A DNA stretch of 64,000 bases from an uncultured Candidatus Saccharibacteria bacterium. Lineage in GTDB: Bacteria; Patescibacteriota; Minisyncoccia; UBA6257; GWB1-50-10. The translations under genes and the position numbers were made by a program. Positions within the stretch are counted from its first letter, which is position 1; each line of letters opens with the position of its first letter. The notes below the pieces were generated by a model. The model made no database searches and was not told the DNA's origin. It saw only the letters and a list, made by a program, of their open reading frames with translations. The stretch covers positions 18,607 to 82,606 of the forward strand of contig CAYISA010000001.1 in assembly GCA_964365955.1 (NCBI GenBank), given 5' to 3'. Below, one piece after another: positions 17,520-48,194 of the stretch.

Positions 17520-19229
17520 ATGGCAATCACGCTCGGAAAGATAACAGATCTACTTGTAAAAGAGGGGGTGGTAAAAAAGGAAGAGGTTGCGACATTAGAA
17601 GAAGAAGCGAAACAGTTGGGCGCGACATTTTCGCGGTACTTAATCTCGCAGGGACGGCTTACCGAAAAACGGCTGAATGAAATCATCAGTACGTTTTTGA
17701 ATGTCCCTATTTTTGACATTAAGGAGCGAGCACTGAAGCCGGAATTTGTGGAACTGCTTCCGGAAGCGATCGCGCGCCAGCGTCAACTGCTTATTGTAGA
17801 CGCCGATCAGAAGAAAAAAACGTACTCGGTCGCGATGACGGACCCCACGGACATCGACACTCTTACCTTTCTTGCAGAATACCTGAACGGAACGATTGAC
17901 CCTTACCTCATTTCGTCCGAGGATCTGCGATTCGGGTTTCGTATTTACAAAAAAAAGTCCTCCGCCGAATTCCAAAAAATCATCAATGAGCGCATCAAAG
18001 AGCTCCGCACAACACTGAAGCGCGGTGCGGAAGGGAACATCCTCGAAAATGTTCCGCTGGTTCAACTTTTTGACGCGGTCATGGATTATGCGGCTATTTT
18101 GGATGCCTCGGATATTTATTTTCAGCCCGAAGAAGAACTCTTAAGAATCCGCTTCCGTGTGGATGGACTCTTGCGGGATATTTTTATAACGGATAAGGCG
18201 ATTAACGACGGAATTATTGCGCGCGCCAAGACACTTTCGGCACTGCGTATTGACGAACACGTGAAACCCCAGGACGGACGCTTCCGGTTCCGAACGAGCG
18301 ATACCGATCTGGATATCCGCGTTGCCATCATGCCGACATTTTTTGGCGAGAAACTGACACTCCGCCTTTTGGCGGGATCGCAATCGTTCCTCACCTTTGA
18401 AGAATTGGGTGTGAGCGATGTGATGGCTCAAAAACTCTATCAGACCGTCAAGCGCCCCTACGGAATGCTCTTGAGCGCCGGTCCTACCGGCTCCGGAAAG
18501 ACGACAACTATTTACAGTATTCTGACTCTTCTGAACCGACCCGAGGTTCATATCGCAACCATCGAAGATCCTATTGAATACATGATTCCGAACGTAAGCC
18601 AAACACAGGTGAATGTACAGGCAAATATTACGTTTGCGTCCGGGCTCCGCGCGCTCCTACGCCACAGTCCCGACGTTATTTTGATCGGTGAAACGCGCGA
18701 CGCGGAAACGGCCTCTATTTCAATTAATGCGGCGCTGACCGGCCATCTTTTGATTTCGAGCATCCACACCAATAATGCCCCGAGCGCGGTGGTGCGACTC
18801 CTGGACCTTGGCATTCCGTCTTTCCTTATAGCATCTACTTTGAACGCGGTGGTGGCACAACGCCTGGGAAGAAAAATCTGCCAGAACTGCATTGAGTCGT
18901 ATCCCACGCCTCCCAGCATCGCGAAACAGATACAAGAAGAGTTTGCGCGAGCGGGTAAAAAGAATCCGCCTCCCAAAAAACTCTACCGCGGAAAAGGATG
19001 CACAATCTGCGATAACACGGGGTACAAGGGTCGCACTGGTATTTTCGAAATTTTGGTCGTGAGCGAGAAAATTCGCGACATCATCGCAGGAACCCATTTC
19101 ACGCTCGACTCGCTTTCGGAAATGGCACGCGCGGAAGGAATGACCACGATGTTTGAAGACGGACTCGAAAAAGTGGAGCGCGGCGTTACCACTATTGAAG
19201 AACTATTCCGCATCATGAGCGCGGAATAA
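17520..19229 (+). CDS. pilB: type IV pilus assembly ATPase PilB/GspE (copy 1)
   Basis: N-terminal GspII-like domain, Walker A LSAGPTGSGKTTT, Asp/His boxes, tetra-Cys (CQNC...CTIC). 569 aa. Confidence 0.9.
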   Translation: MAITLGKITDLLVKEGVVKKEEVATLEEEAKQLGATFSRYLISQGRLTEKRLNEIISTFLNVPIFDIKERALKPEFVELLPEAIARQRQLLIVDADQKKKTYSVAMTDPTDIDTLTFLAEYLNGTIDPYLISSEDLRFGFRIYKKKSSAEFQKIINERIKELRTTLKRGAEGNILENVPLVQLFDAVMDYAAILDASDIYFQPEEELLRIRFRVDGLLRDIFITDKAINDGIIARAKTLSALRIDEHVKPQDGRFRFRTSDTDLDIRVAIMPTFFGEKLTLRLLAGSQSFLTFEELGVSDVMAQKLYQTVKRPYGMLLSAGPTGSGKTTTIYSILTLLNRPEVHIATIEDPIEYMIPNVSQTQVNVQANITFASGLRALLRHSPDVILIGETRDAETASISINAALTGHLLISSIHTNNAPSAVVRLLDLGIPSFLIASTLNAVVAQRLGRKICQNCIESYPTPPSIAKQIQEEFARAGKKNPPPKKLYRGKGCTICDNTGYKGRTGIFEILVVSEKIRDIIAGTHFTLDSLSEMARAEGMTTMFEDGLEKVERGVTTIEELFRIMSAE

Positions 19230-43841: not shown

Positions 43842-43917
43842 GCGGGCGTGGTGTAGCCTGGTTTAACACGCCTCCCTGTCACGGAGGAGACCGTGGGTTC
43901 AAATCCCATCGCCCGCG
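43842..43917 (+). tRNA. tRNA-Asp (anticodon GTC), CCA not encoded
   Basis: Acceptor GCGGGCG/CGCCCGC, G73, D-arm GUGU...ACAC, anticodon stem CCUCC/GGAGG with loop CUGUCAC, T-arm GUGGG-UUCAAAU-CCCAU. Confidence 0.75.
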
Positions 43918-43930
43918 CACGTGAAAAGAA

Positions 43931-43959: not shown

Positions 43960-44072
43960 CCACAATGGGATTTGAAGGGAACTCGCGCGCTCGCGAGCGA
44001 GATAAAACGCGAGTCCCTGGTTTCGGAGGAGGCGCAAATGCGGCGGGGGAGAAAAAATCCCATCGCCTGCGC
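43960..44072 (+). repeat. tRNA-trailer element E2 (~113 nt) ending in an 18-nt copy of the tRNA-Asp 3' end
   Basis: ccacaatgggatttgaaggg (inverted copy of T-arm ttcaaatcccat) + core ...ctggtttcggaggaggcgcaaatgcggcgggggagaaaaa + aatcccatcgcctgcgc (17/18 identical to 43901-43918). Confidence 0.75.
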
Positions 44073-44079
44073 TGACAAA

Positions 44080-45129
44080 TTAGAAAATTACTTCTTTAAG
44101 TTTGTGCGTATCCCCGTGCTGCAATAACCCACGATAGGAGTTGATCGTCTCACGGCGCGGATATCCTTTCAGATTTCGCACTATCCTCCGTTTCGTGATG
44201 GTGCGAATCTGCCGATGATGCGGGAAATGAATCCATCCGAGAAAATCGACCCCGGAGGCATAAGACTCAATGGAAACTTTCTTCTCGTGTAACGAGAGGC
44301 GAAGGTGATCATGGAGGAATGCCCGAATCTTGAGTAATAACACCACGAGATAATCCTTGTTATCCGATAGGATCAGAAAATCATCGGCATAGCGAATATA
44401 ATATTTCCCCTTCAATTCCTGTTTTATAAACATATCAAATTCATGCATATAAATGTTTGCGAGGAGCTGGGATGTGAGATTCCCCAAGGGAAGTCCAAGG
44501 CCAGACCGCACCATATGAAAGCTTGAAATGACTTGTCCTAAGAGCCAAAGAATATCTCGATCTCCTATATTTCGTTCAATGATACGGGTCAAAATTTTTT
44601 GATCCACGCTTGCAAAGAATCTCTTAATATCACACTTTAGGACGTAGCAGGTGCGCGTATTATTCTTTGATACTTTGCGGGCAAATGAGTCGAAGCGTTC
44701 CAGAGCCTTATGAATCCCCTTGTCTTCTCGGCAGGCACAGGAATCGTAGATGAATCGCTCTTCAAAATAAGGATAGAGAGCCCGATAAAGTACGTGATGG
44801 AGAAAGCGGTCCCGCACAGAAGCCTTATGAATAGTCCGTCGTTTCGGGTCCGAGACGTGGAATTCGGAATAGGGTCCATGAACATATGTTTTGTAAAGAA
44901 GGTCTCGGTGAAGCGACACAAGATTGTCTGAGAGGCATGCCTCGAATCCCGCCACATCCTTTTTGTGTCGTTTACCGCAGAGAAACCGTTCCCACGTTGC
45001 AAGGAGATTTTCTATGGTTATGATATCTTGGTAAGTATGAATAATCGTAGTAATAGTGCTGTACCCCCCCGCACAAGGGAAACTCCGCTTGTACTTTTGA
45101 AGGTAAAAGAAACATACCGAACGTGGCAT
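44080..45129 (-). CDS. diversity-generating retroelement reverse transcriptase
   Basis: RT motifs incl. YADDFLIL (RT5) and GLPLGNLTSQLLANIYM (RT4 with the DGR-type [ILV]GxxxSQ signature). N-terminus IITIENLLATWERF...GKRHKKD is like DGR RTs. ~349 aa; start chosen at MPRSV (45129), which has a GAGGTG Shine-Dalgarno sequence; the track ORF runs to 45144. Confidence 0.85.
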   Translation of the reverse strand: MPRSVCFFYLQKYKRSFPCAGGYSTITTIIHTYQDIITIENLLATWERFLCGKRHKKDVAGFEACLSDNLVSLHRDLLYKTYVHGPYSEFHVSDPKRRTIHKASVRDRFLHHVLYRALYPYFEERFIYDSCACREDKGIHKALERFDSFARKVSKNNTRTCYVLKCDIKRFFASVDQKILTRIIERNIGDRDILWLLGQVISSFHMVRSGLGLPLGNLTSQLLANIYMHEFDMFIKQELKGKYYIRYADDFLILSDNKDYLVVLLLKIRAFLHDHLRLSLHEKKVSIESYASGVDFLGWIHFPHHRQIRTITKRRIVRNLKGYPRRETINSYRGLLQHGDTHKLKEVIF

Positions 45130-45435
45130 ACCCACCTCGCGCATATTTCTCGCATTGATCGGAATACGATAGGAATTCGTATTGACGAGACGTTCCTTTC
45201 TCTCTTGGAGCTTACGTTCCGAGCGTGTTTTGCGGCGGATAAATTTGAGAAGCTATCCATGGTGTCAAATGCTATTGCGAAATCTGACATCCTCAAATTC
45301 TTCCTGCAACTTGCATGGGAGGGAAAGACACTGGATCACGCGCTCTACGGAAAACTGCTTCTCGATTTAGATGAAATCGGCCGGATGCTCGGAGGGTGGA
45401 AACGAACCTTGTCTAGCAAAACTCCCGCGAAATAG
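45037..45435 (+). CDS. Avd-like accessory variability determinant (four-helix-bundle, basic C-terminus), encoded antisense to the RT 5' end
   Basis: C-terminus LLLDLDEIGRMLGGWKRTLSSKTPAK plus predicted helices (ETYRTWHTHLAHI / IRIDETFLSLLELTFRA / LSMVSNAIAKSDILKFFLQLAWE), as far as I recall Avd proteins. Start uncertain: the track ORF begins at 44965; 45037 is the first ATG compatible with a four-helix length. Overlaps the RT start on the opposite strand by ~90 nt. Confidence 0.5.
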   Translation: MNNRSNSAVPPRTRETPLVLLKVKETYRTWHTHLAHISRIDRNTIGIRIDETFLSLLELTFRACFAADKFEKLSMVSNAIAKSDILKFFLQLAWEGKTLDHALYGKLLLDLDEIGRMLGGWKRTLSSKTPAK

Positions 45436-45452
45436 CGGGAGAAATCATATGC

Positions 45453-45574
45453 GTAGCAGAAACAGAGCACGCAGTTGTCAGAATTCCAGTCATTCTCGAA
45501 GTTGCCGAGGTTGAACTTGTAGTCACCGTCCGAGTTGCGGTTCACGTTCGGCACCCTGTGGTTACCGTCGGCGT
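45453..45574 (-). repeat. DGR template repeat (TR), sense strand = minus
   Basis: ~122-bp non-coding copy of the 3' ends of the two target genes. In the coding orientation it is AAC-rich (encodes NHRVPNVNRNSDGDYKFNLGNFENDWNSDNCVLCFCY). Every internal mismatch to VR1/VR2 is at a TR adenine. Followed on the minus strand by the hairpin ctcccgctatttcgcgggag. Confidence 0.85.
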
Positions 45575-45814
45575 GTCGTCATGGTATATACGACGCATCA
45601 TCCAGTCCACCGGAGAGAACGCCTGTCCTCCCCTGCATTTCATTCGGAGTCTTTGAATACTCCCGAATGCATCGTACCGACGGATATGATTTTTTCATGA
45701 GGGATGGCGCGCGCGCATAAGGCGTACCCGATGCGTTCCTGGCCTATTTTCGCTCACGGGAATTCGATGACATGAAGCCGTAACCGCATGTTCGAATCCA
45801 ATTCCGTCGTTAGT

Positions 45815-45847
45815 ATATATAAAAACCCCCTCGTTTGCACGAGAGGG
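45815..45847 (-). terminator. rho-independent terminator downstream of DGR target gene 1
   Basis: Minus-strand ccctctcgtgcaaacgagggg hairpin followed by tttttatatata. Confidence 0.55.
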
Positions 45848-45904
45848 TCGAATCTAAGGAACTAATCGGACAAGAACTTATCCAATCGTCCGAGTGTCTG
45901 AGTA

Positions 45905-46573
45905 CTACTCACCGTCGCAGAAACAGAGCACGCAGTAGTCAGAACCCCAGTCACGCTCGAAGTCGCCGAGGCTGAACTCGCAGTCACCGACCGAGTAGCG
46001 GAACACGCGCGGCACCCTGTGGTCACCGCCGGCGTCAACCCAGAGAGCGTTCTTCTCGTCGAAGGAGACGTAGAATTTTCCTTTCGGAAGTTCATCTTTC
46101 TTCTCCTGATAGACGAGGGAGGCACCCTGAGCACCGACGAGAATCGCGTTCTGAGACCGCAAAAGGTTCATGTGATCTTCGGAGGTCACGCTACCCTTCT
46201 TGATTCCGAAGACTTTGACCTTGTAGGTCTTCCCGGGAACCAGTTGGGTGGTCGCCTTGGCGAAGTGTGAGTCCGTGATGTCGGTGTTGTAATAGTAGAA
46301 GCCCTTGCGGTACTTCTGTTCGAAGGTCGCAAGCTGGGTTCCATGGACATAGTCCTTGGGAACCGTAAGCGCGAACTCTTTGAGGTGCTCGTAGCGCGGA
46401 TCGATGAGGTTGGCCCCGTCAAACTTTCCCTCAATCGCATTTTGAAGATGCAGTTTGAGGAGATGCGGATTGAAGGGGTACCCACTCGGTTGGCGGAGTT
46501 GACGGGCGATTTTAAAAATCTGCCCGGTAATCGACTCGTATAAGTCGCCTGCGACAATCGGTTTCGTTGCCAT
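45905..46573 (-). CDS. DGR target protein 1 (VR at C-terminus)
   Basis: 222 aa from MATKPIV (AAAGGAA Shine-Dalgarno sequence). Paralogue of target 2. C-terminal 38 aa (GDHRVPRVFRYSVGDCEFSLGDFERDWGSDYCVLCFCDGE) is encoded by VR1. Confidence 0.75.
   Translation of the reverse strand: MATKPIVAGDLYESITGQIFKIARQLRQPSGYPFNPHLLKLHLQNAIEGKFDGANLIDPRYEHLKEFALTVPKDYVHGTQLATFEQKYRKGFYYYNTDITDSHFAKATTQLVPGKTYKVKVFGIKKGSVTSEDHMNLLRSQNAILVGAQGASLVYQEKKDELPKGKFYVSFDEKNALWVDAGGDHRVPRVFRYSVGDCEFSLGDFERDWGSDYCVLCFCDGE
45912..46035 (-). repeat. DGR variable repeat VR1
   Basis: Aligns with the TR over ~122 bp. ~23 differences, all at TR T (plus strand) = A (coding strand) except the boundary position. Confidence 0.85.
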
Positions 46574-46738
46574 GACGATATTCCTTTCTGTTAATGAACG
46601 CTTGGAGACTGCCAAGTCAGGTGTAAGGGTATCTTACGGTCTAAAGAGTAGTATAGTAATTATATATTGTCAAGCATAAAGATTCGAATCAACGGGCCTA
46701 TCCCCTACCAAAACCCCTACAAATGGAGGGTAAATCGA

Positions 46739-46772
46739 TGTATAAAAAATGCCTCTCGTTTGCACGAGAGGC
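46739..46772 (-). terminator. rho-independent terminator downstream of DGR target gene 2
   Basis: Minus-strand gcctctcgtgcaaacgagaggc perfect hairpin followed by attttttata. Confidence 0.6.
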
Positions 46773-46831
46773 ATGAATCTAAGGGTCGAAAAACCCTAAG
46801 GGCATACATAATGGACGTAAGCGCCAAAGAA

Positions 46832-47683
46832 TTATTCGCCGTCGCAGAAACAGAGCACGCAGTCGGCAGAATTCCAGCCACCCTCGAAGTAGCCGAGGTT
46901 GAACTCGTAGTCACCGACCGAGAGGCGGTACACGTGCGGCACCCTGTGGTCACCGTCGGGGTCTTTCCAGAGCGCTTCCTTCTTATCAAAGGAGAGGGTC
47001 CACTTGCCGACCGGAAACTCGTCTTTCTTGAGTTGCCAGGCAAGCGAGAGACCATGGGCTCCGACAAAGATCGCTTTCTCGCGGGCATACACTCCCATCA
47101 ATTCCTCCGAGGTGGATCGAGAACCGATGTTCACGATCTTGACCTTGTAAGTTTTGCCGGGGACAAGCTTCTGCGTCGCGTTCCGGAAATTCTTGTCGGT
47201 CACGTCATCGTTGAAGGAGTAGAAATCTCTGAGCTTCAACGAGTCGAGCTGTCTCTCGTGCCGATAGTTCTTCGGAACCGTGAGAGAGAAGGTCTTCAAG
47301 ACCATGAATCTCTGGAGGAGAAGCTGCTTTCGCGCTTTCTCCTGCCAGTCCTTCGGACCGTTCTTCACAATATACTCGAGATCATCCGTCTGAAATGCGC
47401 CGGAGGCAAACATCTTGCCCCAATGCGCGTCGAAATTCTGAAGCTTCTTTGCGATCTCTTCGGGAACCTTGTGGAGATTCCAGAAATCCCGGACTTCGTG
47501 CTCGCGGCCTTTGCCGTCCAGTTCGAAGAATAGATCGATGGCACCATGACCCAAGACATCGTTATCACGACACTCCGTGAATTTCTTTTTCCCCTCTTCG
47601 GAGAAAACCTCTTTGTCGGTGAGATAGAAAAGCACGGAGGTACCATTCTTCTCTACCTTTTTCCATGATATGAAATCGCACAT
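46832..47683 (-). CDS. DGR target protein 2 (VR at C-terminus)
   Basis: 283 aa from MCDFISW (GGAAGGAG Shine-Dalgarno sequence 7 nt upstream). C-terminus GDHRVPHVYRLSVGDYEFNLGYFEGGWNSADCVLCFCDGE is encoded by VR2. The central region is paralogous to target 1 (FSLTVPKNY...LVPGKTYKVK). Confidence 0.75.
   Translation of the reverse strand: MCDFISWKKVEKNGTSVLFYLTDKEVFSEEGKKKFTECRDNDVLGHGAIDLFFELDGKGREHEVRDFWNLHKVPEEIAKKLQNFDAHWGKMFASGAFQTDDLEYIVKNGPKDWQEKARKQLLLQRFMVLKTFSLTVPKNYRHERQLDSLKLRDFYSFNDDVTDKNFRNATQKLVPGKTYKVKIVNIGSRSTSEELMGVYAREKAIFVGAHGLSLAWQLKKDEFPVGKWTLSFDKKEALWKDPDGDHRVPHVYRLSVGDYEFNLGYFEGGWNSADCVLCFCDGE
46839..46962 (-). repeat. DGR variable repeat VR2
   Basis: Aligns with the TR. 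~19 differences, all at TR adenine positions (coding strand) except one boundary position. Confidence 0.85.
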
Positions 47684-48023
47684 ATGTGACTCCTTCCTAG
47701 GAATTGTGAGGGAAACAGTGTATTTAGTTCGTAAGGTTTCTGACACCAGGTTAGCATATTGTTTCTATTTTGTCAAATCTATGTAGCAAAAGCATATAGA
47801 ACAGAGGTATTTAGCTGCTCTAGTATTCCTTACTATCTCTGTAAAATCTTTGGAAATAACGGAAAATGTGGTAGGAATAATCAAGTTAATACAATCGCTC
47901 GTAGGTCTGGAATATAAATTGATGTATCATTTCTCCTCTCAAATGCGGTTTTAACATCGTCCACTAGCCCGCGCAAGTGAAAAGAAATAAAAATCCCCGC
48001 GTAAAACGCGGAGATTATTTCCG

Positions 48024-48194
48024 TTTGGGACAGTTTTTCTTATGGATTTTTTCGAATTCAAAACGGATATGTTTATTGCAGTAAACACAGTAGGAACAGG
48101 GACAGCTATGCTTGGCGCCTCCTAAATGACACCGGCATCTGCATTCTTCAGAGGAATGCGGAGGTATCACCTTCATTCTTTTCATGCGGTTTTT
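48024..48194 (-). CDS. small Cys/His-rich protein (56 aa; not in the ORF track because it is under 60 aa)
   Basis: Hand translation gives MKRMKVIPPHSSEECRCRCHLGGAKHSCPCSYCVYCNKHIRFEFEKIHKKNCPKRK. AGGAA Shine-Dalgarno-like sequence upstream. A ccgcgttttacgcgg hairpin plus U-tract terminator lies immediately downstream. Starts 55 nt after the gatA stop. Confidence 0.35.

Follow-up and report, generated by a model that had tools for sequence, protein, structure and literature searches.

A diversity-generating retroelement of an uncultured Candidatus Saccharibacteria bacterium and the probable lectin-like fold of its uncatalogued target domain

The variable proteins Mtd and TvpA, which are targets of diversity-generating retroelements (DGRs), carry their variable region (VR) at the C-terminus, with variable and scaffold residues alternating (PMC5758913, PMC5006420). 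AvpA from Nanoarchaeota and TaqVP from Thermus, both from 'dark matter' organisms and unclassifiable by sequence, were solved as lectin folds (PMC5006420). In the lectin fold of DGR proteins, the binding site is located on a sheet, which is accompanied by two helices and by terminal strands (Handa et al., PMC5006420), and the solved variable proteins are only weakly alike, the mammalian lectin CLEC5A being closest (PMC5006420). For bacteria of the candidate phyla radiation (CPR), Wu et al. (2018) described the UVR1-6 classes and 45 ungrouped VRs and left their fold open (PMC5758913), and Roux et al. predicted that uncharacterised CPR VR domains are new variants of the lectin fold (PMC8144416). 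DGR surveys have left many CPR VRs without a fold, and the use of non-lectin scaffolds stayed an open matter.

Here we describe a DGR located in a stretch of 64,000 nucleotides, further called the window, which covers positions 18,607 to 82,606 of contig CAYISA010000001.1 (assembly GCA_964365955.1) of an uncultured Candidatus Saccharibacteria bacterium. Positions 44080-47746 of the window form a complete DGR of an uncultivated Patescibacteria bacterium, which is ordinary in mechanism. Its two target proteins share a C-terminal domain that probably has a compact, very divergent and uncatalogued C-type-lectin-like fold and that would not be a new kind of target.

All parts of the element lie on the minus strand, except for the accessory gene avd (Table 1). 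Along the direction of transcription, target gene 2 and target gene 1 are each followed by a hairpin, after which come about 330 nt of non-coding DNA, the template repeat (TR), a short hairpin that has a U-run, the gene avd in opposite orientation, and the gene for the reverse transcriptase (RT). The order TR-(avd)-RT, in which avd has the reverse orientation, corresponds to architecture B3 of Wu et al. 2018 (PMC5758913). As far as can be judged from their description, the UVR1-6 and ungrouped CPR VRs resemble our targets in CPR origin, absence of a recognisable domain, C-terminal VR and B3 architecture; whereas Wu et al. left the fold of the UVR classes open, the model presented below argues for a lectin fold.

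Likeness also exists to targets of the formylglycine-generating enzyme (FGE) type, such as Mtd, TvpA and the CLec1 VRs of Wu et al. 2018 (PF03781). In both groups the VR makes up the final ~40 residues of a C-terminal domain, scaffold residues that do not vary alternate with AAY codons (AAC or AAT), an aromatic residue within the VR is invariant, an initiation of mutagenic homing (IMH)/IMH* pair is located at the 3' end, and helices and strands follow each other in the same order, which for our targets is a predicted one. In contrast to the FGE-type targets, the family in the window has no PF03781 match and no RGG.W or GFRC motif, the profile-profile probability is 0.04, and the C-terminal domain is smaller than the FGE-type DGR domains. 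AvpA and TaqVP are closest to mammalian C-type lectins and not to other DGR proteins, a pattern that our domain repeats in Foldseek searches, even though PDB searches detected no sequence similarity between them and the domain studied. Furthermore, the VR of AvpA is internal and has ~27 residues, whereas the VR in the window is terminal and has 41 codons.

Table 1 Features of the DGR cassette and its surroundings (window positions)
Feature	Position	Strand	Remarks
Target gene 2	46832..47683	-	283 aa from ATG; open reading frame (ORF) and translation
N-terminal domain of target 2	47318..47683	-	MCDFISW..., ~122 aa; beta-hairpin and helices
C-terminal variable-protein domain of target 2	46835..47317	-	Residues 123-283, 161 aa; AlphaFold2 model
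VR2 of target 2	46840..46962	-	123 nt, in register with TR, 88% identity
CVLCFC-coding 18 nt	46844..46861	-	TGCGTGCTCTGTTTCTGC; adenine-free; encodes the last (predicted) beta strand; lies where TR/VR identity ends at the 3' side, close to the IMH
Terminator-like hairpin after target 2	46749..46774	-	11-bp stem, GCAA loop, T-run; terminator scan
Target gene 1	45905..46573	-	222 aa from ATG; ORF
VR1 of target 1	45913..46035	-	123 nt, in register with TR, 85% identity
Terminator-like hairpin after target 1	45824..45849	-	11-bp stem, GCAA loop, T-run; terminator scan
Structured non-coding RNA domain (predicted), ~220 nt	45575..45795	-	Directly upstream of TR; aligned across 19-20 DGR loci
TR	45452..45574	-	123 nt with 31 adenines; read in the frame of the targets, 9 AAY codons and 1 AAG
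Post-TR hairpin and U-run	45422..45441	-	Terminator scan; overlap with the stop codon of avd (opposite strand)
avd	45040..45435	+	First Met at 45040; ORF listed from GTG at 44965; Pfam and NCBIfam profiles
DGR reverse transcriptase	44080..45144	-	RVT_1 E 2.5e-23; true start uncertain
tRNA-Asp	43842..43918	+	ARAGORN

Predicted fold of the C-terminal domain

An AlphaFold2 model of the C-terminal domain, built on an alignment of 29 sequences, has a mean predicted local distance difference test score (pLDDT) of 95.4 and a predicted template modelling score (pTM) of 0.91, with four of the five models above a pLDDT of 94. In domain numbering, the model has strands (E) and helices (H) at E4-13, E56-64, H70-79, (E82-83), H86-100, E106-108, E124-131, E137-143 and E152-158. 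This predicted order, beta-beta-alpha-(beta)-alpha-beta-beta-beta-beta, is C-type-lectin-like, and it is repeated in a model of full-length target 2 (pLDDT 89). The VR encodes the last three strands of the model with their connecting loops, and a conserved insert of 40 residues (TVP..Y.H..QL ... ITD.NF ... LVPGKTY) is placed between the first two strands.

Structural searches with the model point in the same direction. Nearly all of the top 50 Foldseek matches in PDB are C-type lectin domains, among them conglutinin, CD23, langerin, NKp80, SP-D, DCIR, mincle and Epstein-Barr virus gp42 (E 0.2-1.7, target-normalised template modelling score (TM) up to 0.51), and the top matches in BFVD are C-type lectins of herpesviruses and poxviruses (probability up to 0.82). 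Thus, animal and viral C-type lectins such as CD23, langerin, NKp80 and SP-D, and their herpesvirus and poxvirus counterparts, are the nearest structural neighbours and have the element order in common with our domain. They differ from it in sequence (identity 8-14%, at TM <= 0.51), the matches give no indication of common motifs for disulfides or Ca2+ sites, and the conserved 40-residue insert after the first strand is extra in the studied domain. With the full-length model, Foldseek also finds the sulfoxide synthase EgtB, whose catalytic domain presumably has the FGE-type lectin fold. A sulfoxide synthase has been named as an enzyme that has the fold of C-type lectins (CLec) (PMC5006420).

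At the sequence level the family stands apart. Neither target matches Pfam, NCBIfam, PHROG or PADLOC models, nor any PDB sequence, and the 33 relatives that were found by a word-indexed search are all hypothetical proteins, the named ones almost all from Patescibacteria. In a set of 1.84 billion cluster representatives (clusters at 50% identity), 1,296 proteins matched a profile of the 161-aa domain with E <= 1e-3, and 966 of them with E <= 1e-10. Judged from these searches, the domain is the founder of a large uncatalogued family, mostly from Patescibacteria, that is not covered by Pfam. The preliminary description of this DNA, made from the letters alone, had stated that the hallmarks of CLec/FGE-type VRs are not apparent by eye and had proposed a profile search as a check. 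This search gave no match to FGE-sulfatase, DUF1566 (PF07603) or Lectin_C at E <= 1, neither for the targets in the window nor for 149 family members, and the RGG.W...GFRC motif is missing from the targets, yet occurs in the FGE-type targets that neighbour related loci. PF07603 and related profiles represent the CLec2 type of target (DUF1566 / Fib_succ_major, Legionella LdtA-like), and they, too, were matched by none of the 149 members at E <= 1. Comparisons of the family by hhalign, first with a single FGE-type target and later with an alignment of 120 FGE-type Patescibacteria targets, were both null, and the probability of 0.04 given above belongs to the second. Other Pfam matches of the 149 members (e.g. 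Av_adeno_fibre, Cu-oxidase) were rejected as scattered chance matches, and two PDB matches by sequence or profile, ExbD (E 0.13) and a designed protein (E 2), were taken as noise.

Several results weigh against a lectin fold. No Foldseek match reaches E <= 0.001, the best E being 0.1, and the matches have TM 0.3-0.5 and a root mean square deviation (rmsd) of 6-8 Å; the solved DGR variable proteins (Mtd, TvpA, AvpA, TaqVP) are absent from the Foldseek top 50; and no sequence or profile link of the family to any lectin family was found. It could therefore be argued that the domain is a new alpha/beta scaffold for DGRs that only superficially looks like a lectin, and that would make a third fold beside the lectin fold and the proposed immunoglobulin (Ig)-like one. 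Such a scaffold would agree with the statistical weakness of every structural match (best E 0.1, TM <= 0.51, rmsd 6-8 Å), with the lack of profile and profile-profile signal to lectin families, with the conserved insert of 40 residues and an additional strand at the N-terminus, for which the structural matches name no counterpart, and with the VRs from CPR, in six classes and 45 others, to which Wu et al. assigned no fold (PMC5758913). On the other hand, the order of the elements agrees one for one with that of the lectin fold, and the matches, weak as they are, fall almost exclusively into one fold class in two independent libraries. The known lectin folds of DGR proteins are equally distant from each other, and the VR extends over the last three C-terminal strands with variable and scaffold residues alternating, as in Mtd and TvpA. 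We consider a new scaffold unlikely for these reasons. An Ig-like target fold finds no counterpart in the model, which has two long helices, and no Ig-fold entries were among the top Foldseek matches.

The lectin fold is thus the reading that we prefer, and the non-lectin scaffold that was implied by the preliminary description is not what the searches suggest. That description would have given way to a confident CLec-fold assignment. Such an assignment is largely supplied by a model with a pLDDT of 95, lectin element order and lectin-dominated matches, but the Foldseek scores are weak (best E 0.1, TM 0.51), which makes the fold probable and not proven. Some doubt remains since, next to the weak scores, strand pairing and exposure are read from the element order only: pairing of beta1 with beta5 and solvent exposure of the variable residues are what we infer from this order and from the periodicity of the variable positions. 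With moderate confidence, the family can be moved to the lectin-fold camp, which strengthens the lectin fold as a near-universal scaffold of DGR targets.

The positions of the variable residues can be compared with the model, since the TR codons were mapped onto it codon by codon, a check that the preliminary description had also proposed. AAC codons occur at positions 123, 128, 130, 132, 140, 143 and 152 of the domain, AAT codons at 146 and 149, and the AAG codon at 138, with the codons GAC, TAC, GAG, CAC and AGG between them. Within beta3 (HRVP-N-V-N-R-N-S) and beta4 (Y-K-F-N-L-G-N-F), variable and constant residues alternate, and the constant residues V, R, F, L, G and W are written with adenine-free codons. 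Further variable positions surround the invariant W148 in the loop before beta5 (E-N-D-W-N-S-D-N); F139 and F144 are invariant as well. Over 149 family members, the mean entropy is 3.08 bits under TR codons that contain adenine and 1.66 bits under adenine-free codons (Mann-Whitney p = 5.6e-6), with 2.05 bits for the remaining domain. Since the AAY codons alternate with adenine-free constant codons in beta3 and beta4, one face of this hairpin and the following loop would become a hypervariable surface on a fixed core. Its exposure and its binding of ligands are predicted features, and the theoretical repertoire would amount to about 2.5e16 proteins.

Targets, cassette and present state

Both targets are small proteins when read from their ATG codons, of the lengths that had been given earlier (Table 1). 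They share 55% identity over the last ~165 aa (167 aa aligned), a region that includes the conserved core sequences TVPK.Y.H..QL and LVPGKTYKVK to which the preliminary description drew attention. Their N-terminal parts are unrelated to each other: target 1 has a short helical part in front of the same C-terminal domain (residues ~56-222), and the N-terminal domain of target 2 is found in about 20 proteins, which include 14 full-length homologues and 5 proteins with other C-termini, without a Pfam, PHROG or Foldseek match. Target 2 is identical to a hypothetical protein of a Patescibacteria metagenome-assembled genome. The view that the two paralogues are served by one TR and stem from duplication of a gene-plus-terminator module is confirmed by repeat comparison and a terminator scan. 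The duplicated module consists of the C-terminal domain, the VR, the 3' flank and the hairpin, and the copies are spaced by 925-927 nt.

As noted before, signal peptides are lacking. A hydrophobic N-terminal segment is present in neither target, and the highest 15-residue Kyte-Doolittle means (0.87 and 1.27) both lie inside the C-terminal domain. Since export signals are lacking, the two proteins probably act inside the cell, as far as their sequences indicate. Within the family a signal peptide or membrane anchor is predicted in 12 of 149 members, which suggests that the domain is occasionally exported; most members have no such segment and are candidate intracellular hypervariable binders in ultra-small symbiotic bacteria. 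The FGE-type Patescibacteria targets that adjoin in related contigs differ in this respect, as they carry pilin-type N-termini. In two larger members, P0086 (792 aa) and P0110 (649 aa), the variable domain is internal (residues ~156-319) and is followed by repeats of a ~150-aa unit; not all members of the family, therefore, have the VR at the C-terminus.

In the mechanism that we envisage, the adjacent RT, aided by Avd, would copy the single TR, adenines would be randomised, and the resulting cDNA would replace the last 41 codons of the two tandem paralogous genes. The translation of the RT contains YADD and LGNLTSQ, and the latter is taken by us as the (I/L/V)GxxxSQ signature of DGR RTs. The start codon of the RT is uncertain because an ATG is missing where the homologous RT of locus L001 starts, and the RT and avd ORFs, as listed, overlap head-to-head by up to ~180 nt (44965-45144). 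The product of avd matches Pfam bAvd (E 8e-8) and NCBIfam DivGenRetAVD (E 2.6e-12), with scores that do not attain the curated cut-off in either case. On the basis of these profiles and of its position antisense to TR and RT, which recurs in related loci, the gene can be counted as an Avd accessory gene.

Related loci were collected by a scan of one genome per species with a query alignment of 8 close sequences, which yielded 35 loci. Their labels (Saccharibacteria, Paceibacterota, Nomurabacteria, Jorgensenbacteria, Minisyncoccia, Falkowbacteria) are almost all those of Patescibacteria lineages, and we suspect that the few oddly labelled ones are binning errors. Seventeen loci have avd, in each case antisense (17/17 where detected), and 15 have an RT, in the order seen in the window; the others are truncated contigs or lone copies without RT within 4 kb. 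About half of the loci examined thus carry the same target-TR-(avd)-RT cassette, and 18 of the 35 have adenine-specific TR/VR pairs (e.g. 14/14, 18/18 and 9/9 mismatches at TR adenines). The gene that follows the homologue in L007, which was tested as a second target, is unrelated. Two DGRs stand in tandem in L001 (2550-5838) and L008 (2459-5799). The first has a pilin-like FGE-sulfatase target, which ends in ...FLRGGLW...VGFRCAR, and a same-strand avd; directly after it comes the DGR of the studied family with its antisense avd. Genes nearby are of ThiF/BubE-type, methyltransferase, serine recombinase, Fic and SocA kinds, and this neighbourhood suggests a mobile or defence island.

The differences between TR and VRs in the window show the bias expected from the mechanism outlined above. 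In ungapped comparisons over the last 123 nt of each gene, 17 of the 18 mismatches of VR1 and 13 of the 15 mismatches of VR2 are located at TR adenines, whereas adenine content of the TR is only 25%. All adenine-containing TR codons fall in the last ~40 residues, close to the ~38 that the preliminary description had given for the diversified part. The identity of TR and VRs stops at ...TTCTGC, after which both VRs continue with GACGG.. and the TR with TACGC..; by its sequence and its place at the 3' end of the ORFs, this divergence corresponds to the usual IMH/IMH* distinction.

We infer that the DGR is probably active today. One result weighs against activity: a look-up of clusters at 90% identity gave no population-level VR variants of either target, only the same sequence with a longer start. 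The cassette could thus be a relic, with VRs that were diversified in the past and a DGR that is now inactive in this genome. Next to the missing variants, the uncertain start codon of the RT and its overlap with avd, the Avd matches below both curated cut-offs, and the absence of an RT within 4 kb in roughly half of the family loci can be cited in favour of decay. However, every ORF is intact, each VR has just 1-2 non-adenine mismatches, which argues against long neutral drift, the IMH/IMH* distinction is kept, and the 5' RNA domain and post-TR hairpin discussed below are intact and agree with the covarying consensus. An inactive relic is therefore a distinctly unlikely explanation, and activity at present remains the reading that we adopt.

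The cysteine-rich tail

An odd feature of the targets is the short cysteine-rich end of the variable region, which was recognised in the preliminary description as an invariant D.CVLCFCDGE. The end CVLCFCDGE is indeed identical in both targets, but the D.C prefix fits target 1 only (SDYC vs SADC), because the prefix positions are themselves variable. The word invariant does not apply to the family: each Cys position holds Cys in 62-74% of the 149 members, the replacements being V, L, A, R or S, and VLVVFRDC stands at the end in two loci whose TR/VR pairs show a clear adenine bias.

In the model, CVLCFC is the predicted strand beta5 (152-158), which would be the final core strand, encoded on the last 18 nt of TR/VR identity, a segment that must stay constant. 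Its codons, TGC GTG CTC TGT TTC TGC, have no adenine and are identical in TR, VR1 and VR2, and over 19 related TRs the last 18 nt of identity contain 6% A, compared with 28% in the rest of the TR. A constant core strand in a TR-templated region can use only adenine-free codons, which leaves F, L, V, C, W, A, G, P, R and S and excludes Ile, Met and Tyr. The odd tail then has a simple reading, namely adenine-free scaffold codons at an end that is fixed by the recognition sequence of the element.

It speaks against this simple reading that Cys occupies 66% of the three beta5 positions and only 1.2% of the rest of the domain outside the VR; the enrichment exceeds what the need for adenine-free codons alone explains. 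At the TR 3' end, the DNA string TGCTTCTGC is found repeatedly in different genomes. Because of the Cys excess and this recurrence, the tail is probably also under constraint at the level of nucleic acid (IMH or TR 3' end), as the sequences suggest. That C..C.C is instead a functional motif in itself (a metal site, redox switch or acylation site) would explain the 66% versus 1.2%, all the more as codons without adenine are equally available for Val, Leu, Ala and Phe, but we regard it as improbable, since the cysteines are replaced in 26-38% of the members, the two loci with VLVVFRDC have a single Cys beyond the strand, three cysteines in alternating places of a predicted beta strand cannot point to a single site together, and the conservation of the DNA string points to the nucleic acid. 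These replacements and the VLVVFRDC loci make a dedicated metal or redox site unlikely.

Structured RNA and surroundings

In the RNA of the Bordetella phage DGR, 20 nt of avd precede the TR and a 140-nt Spacer follows it; this RNA is represented in Rfam by the RT-10 motif. The locus in the window is similar in the physical linkage of its TR to a structured non-coding RNA and in the presence of Avd. It differs in the place of the structure: whereas the essential structured RNA of the Bordetella phage (Spacer) lies downstream of the TR, the domain in the window (~220 nt, 8 helices) lies upstream, and on the downstream side a short hairpin and its U-run are all that comes before the antisense avd.

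The upstream domain could be compared between loci because the distance from VR to TR is nearly constant (326-425 nt in 20 loci). The comparison included the window and loci L001, L008, L011, L013-L018, L020-L022, L025, L026, L028, L029, L031-L033 and L037. RNAalifold predicted 55 pairs in 8 helices, of which 45 show compensatory changes. Of the cells, 94.7% can pair, against 38-51% when the partners are slid by 1-3 columns, and none of 500 shuffles reaches the observed values. Many conserved G-U pairs assign the RNA to the strand of the TR. No Rfam match was obtained even at E <= 10, RT-10 included, and no published description of this RNA or of the target family turned up in literature searches.

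Within ~15 nt after the TR, a hairpin with a covarying stem occurs in nearly all related loci (first ~45 nt, 18 loci), in variants such as CTCCCGC..GCGGGAG, CTCCCAC..GTGGGAG and CCTCAA..TTGAGG. Since this hairpin and its U-run directly follow the TR, the TR transcript may be a separate short RNA that ends there. The covarying RNA upstream of the TR provides a handle on assembly and priming of DGRs with antisense avd. When fold, distribution and RNA are taken together, the family might represent a lectin-fold subclass that occurs throughout the Patescibacteria (at least 1,296 clusters at 50% identity), acts as an intracellular hypervariable binder, and uses a TR RNA that is structured at its 5' side in place of a 3' Spacer; this combined view is tentative, and we consider it possible but rather doubtful as a whole. 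If true, the 5' structured RNA would imply a differently organised particle of RT, Avd and RNA, possibly with a different priming geometry.

The hairpins after the two targets resemble intrinsic terminators and are located ~65 nt beyond the VRs; their regions are 84% identical with compensated changes in the stems, and a hairpin is found at the same position in 20 of 20 aligned loci. In the DGRs of Bordetella and Legionella, recognition of the target is aided by GC-rich inverted repeats that follow the IMH (PMC5758913). By analogy, the hairpins may possibly have a dual role, in termination and in target recognition. The match of an Rfam suhB/mmgR model at 46735-46810 (34.5 bits vs a gathering score of 41) was rejected as a chance similarity to the terminator hairpin. 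The ~65 nt between VR and hairpin (45850-45904 and 46775-46831, minus strand) hold degenerate repeats of 8-9 nt of the type (A/C)CTT(A/G)G, the CTT cores of which are conserved across 20 loci from different genomes. These repeats may be part of an extended target-recognition site.

The cassette is further bracketed by copies of the 3' end of the tRNA-Asp gene, at 44055-44072 (17/18), just beyond the stop codon of the RT, and at 47960-47986 (23/27, including bases after the tRNA), upstream of target 2. These copies enclose the whole 3.9-kb cassette like attachment sites, and from the sequence the element looks as if it had been inserted at tRNA-Asp; no integrase is present between the copies. 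A small ORF for a Cys/His-rich protein of 56 aa (..CRCRCHLGGAKHSCPCSYCVYCNKH..) lies between gatA and the DGR cassette, at 48015-48185 on the minus strand.

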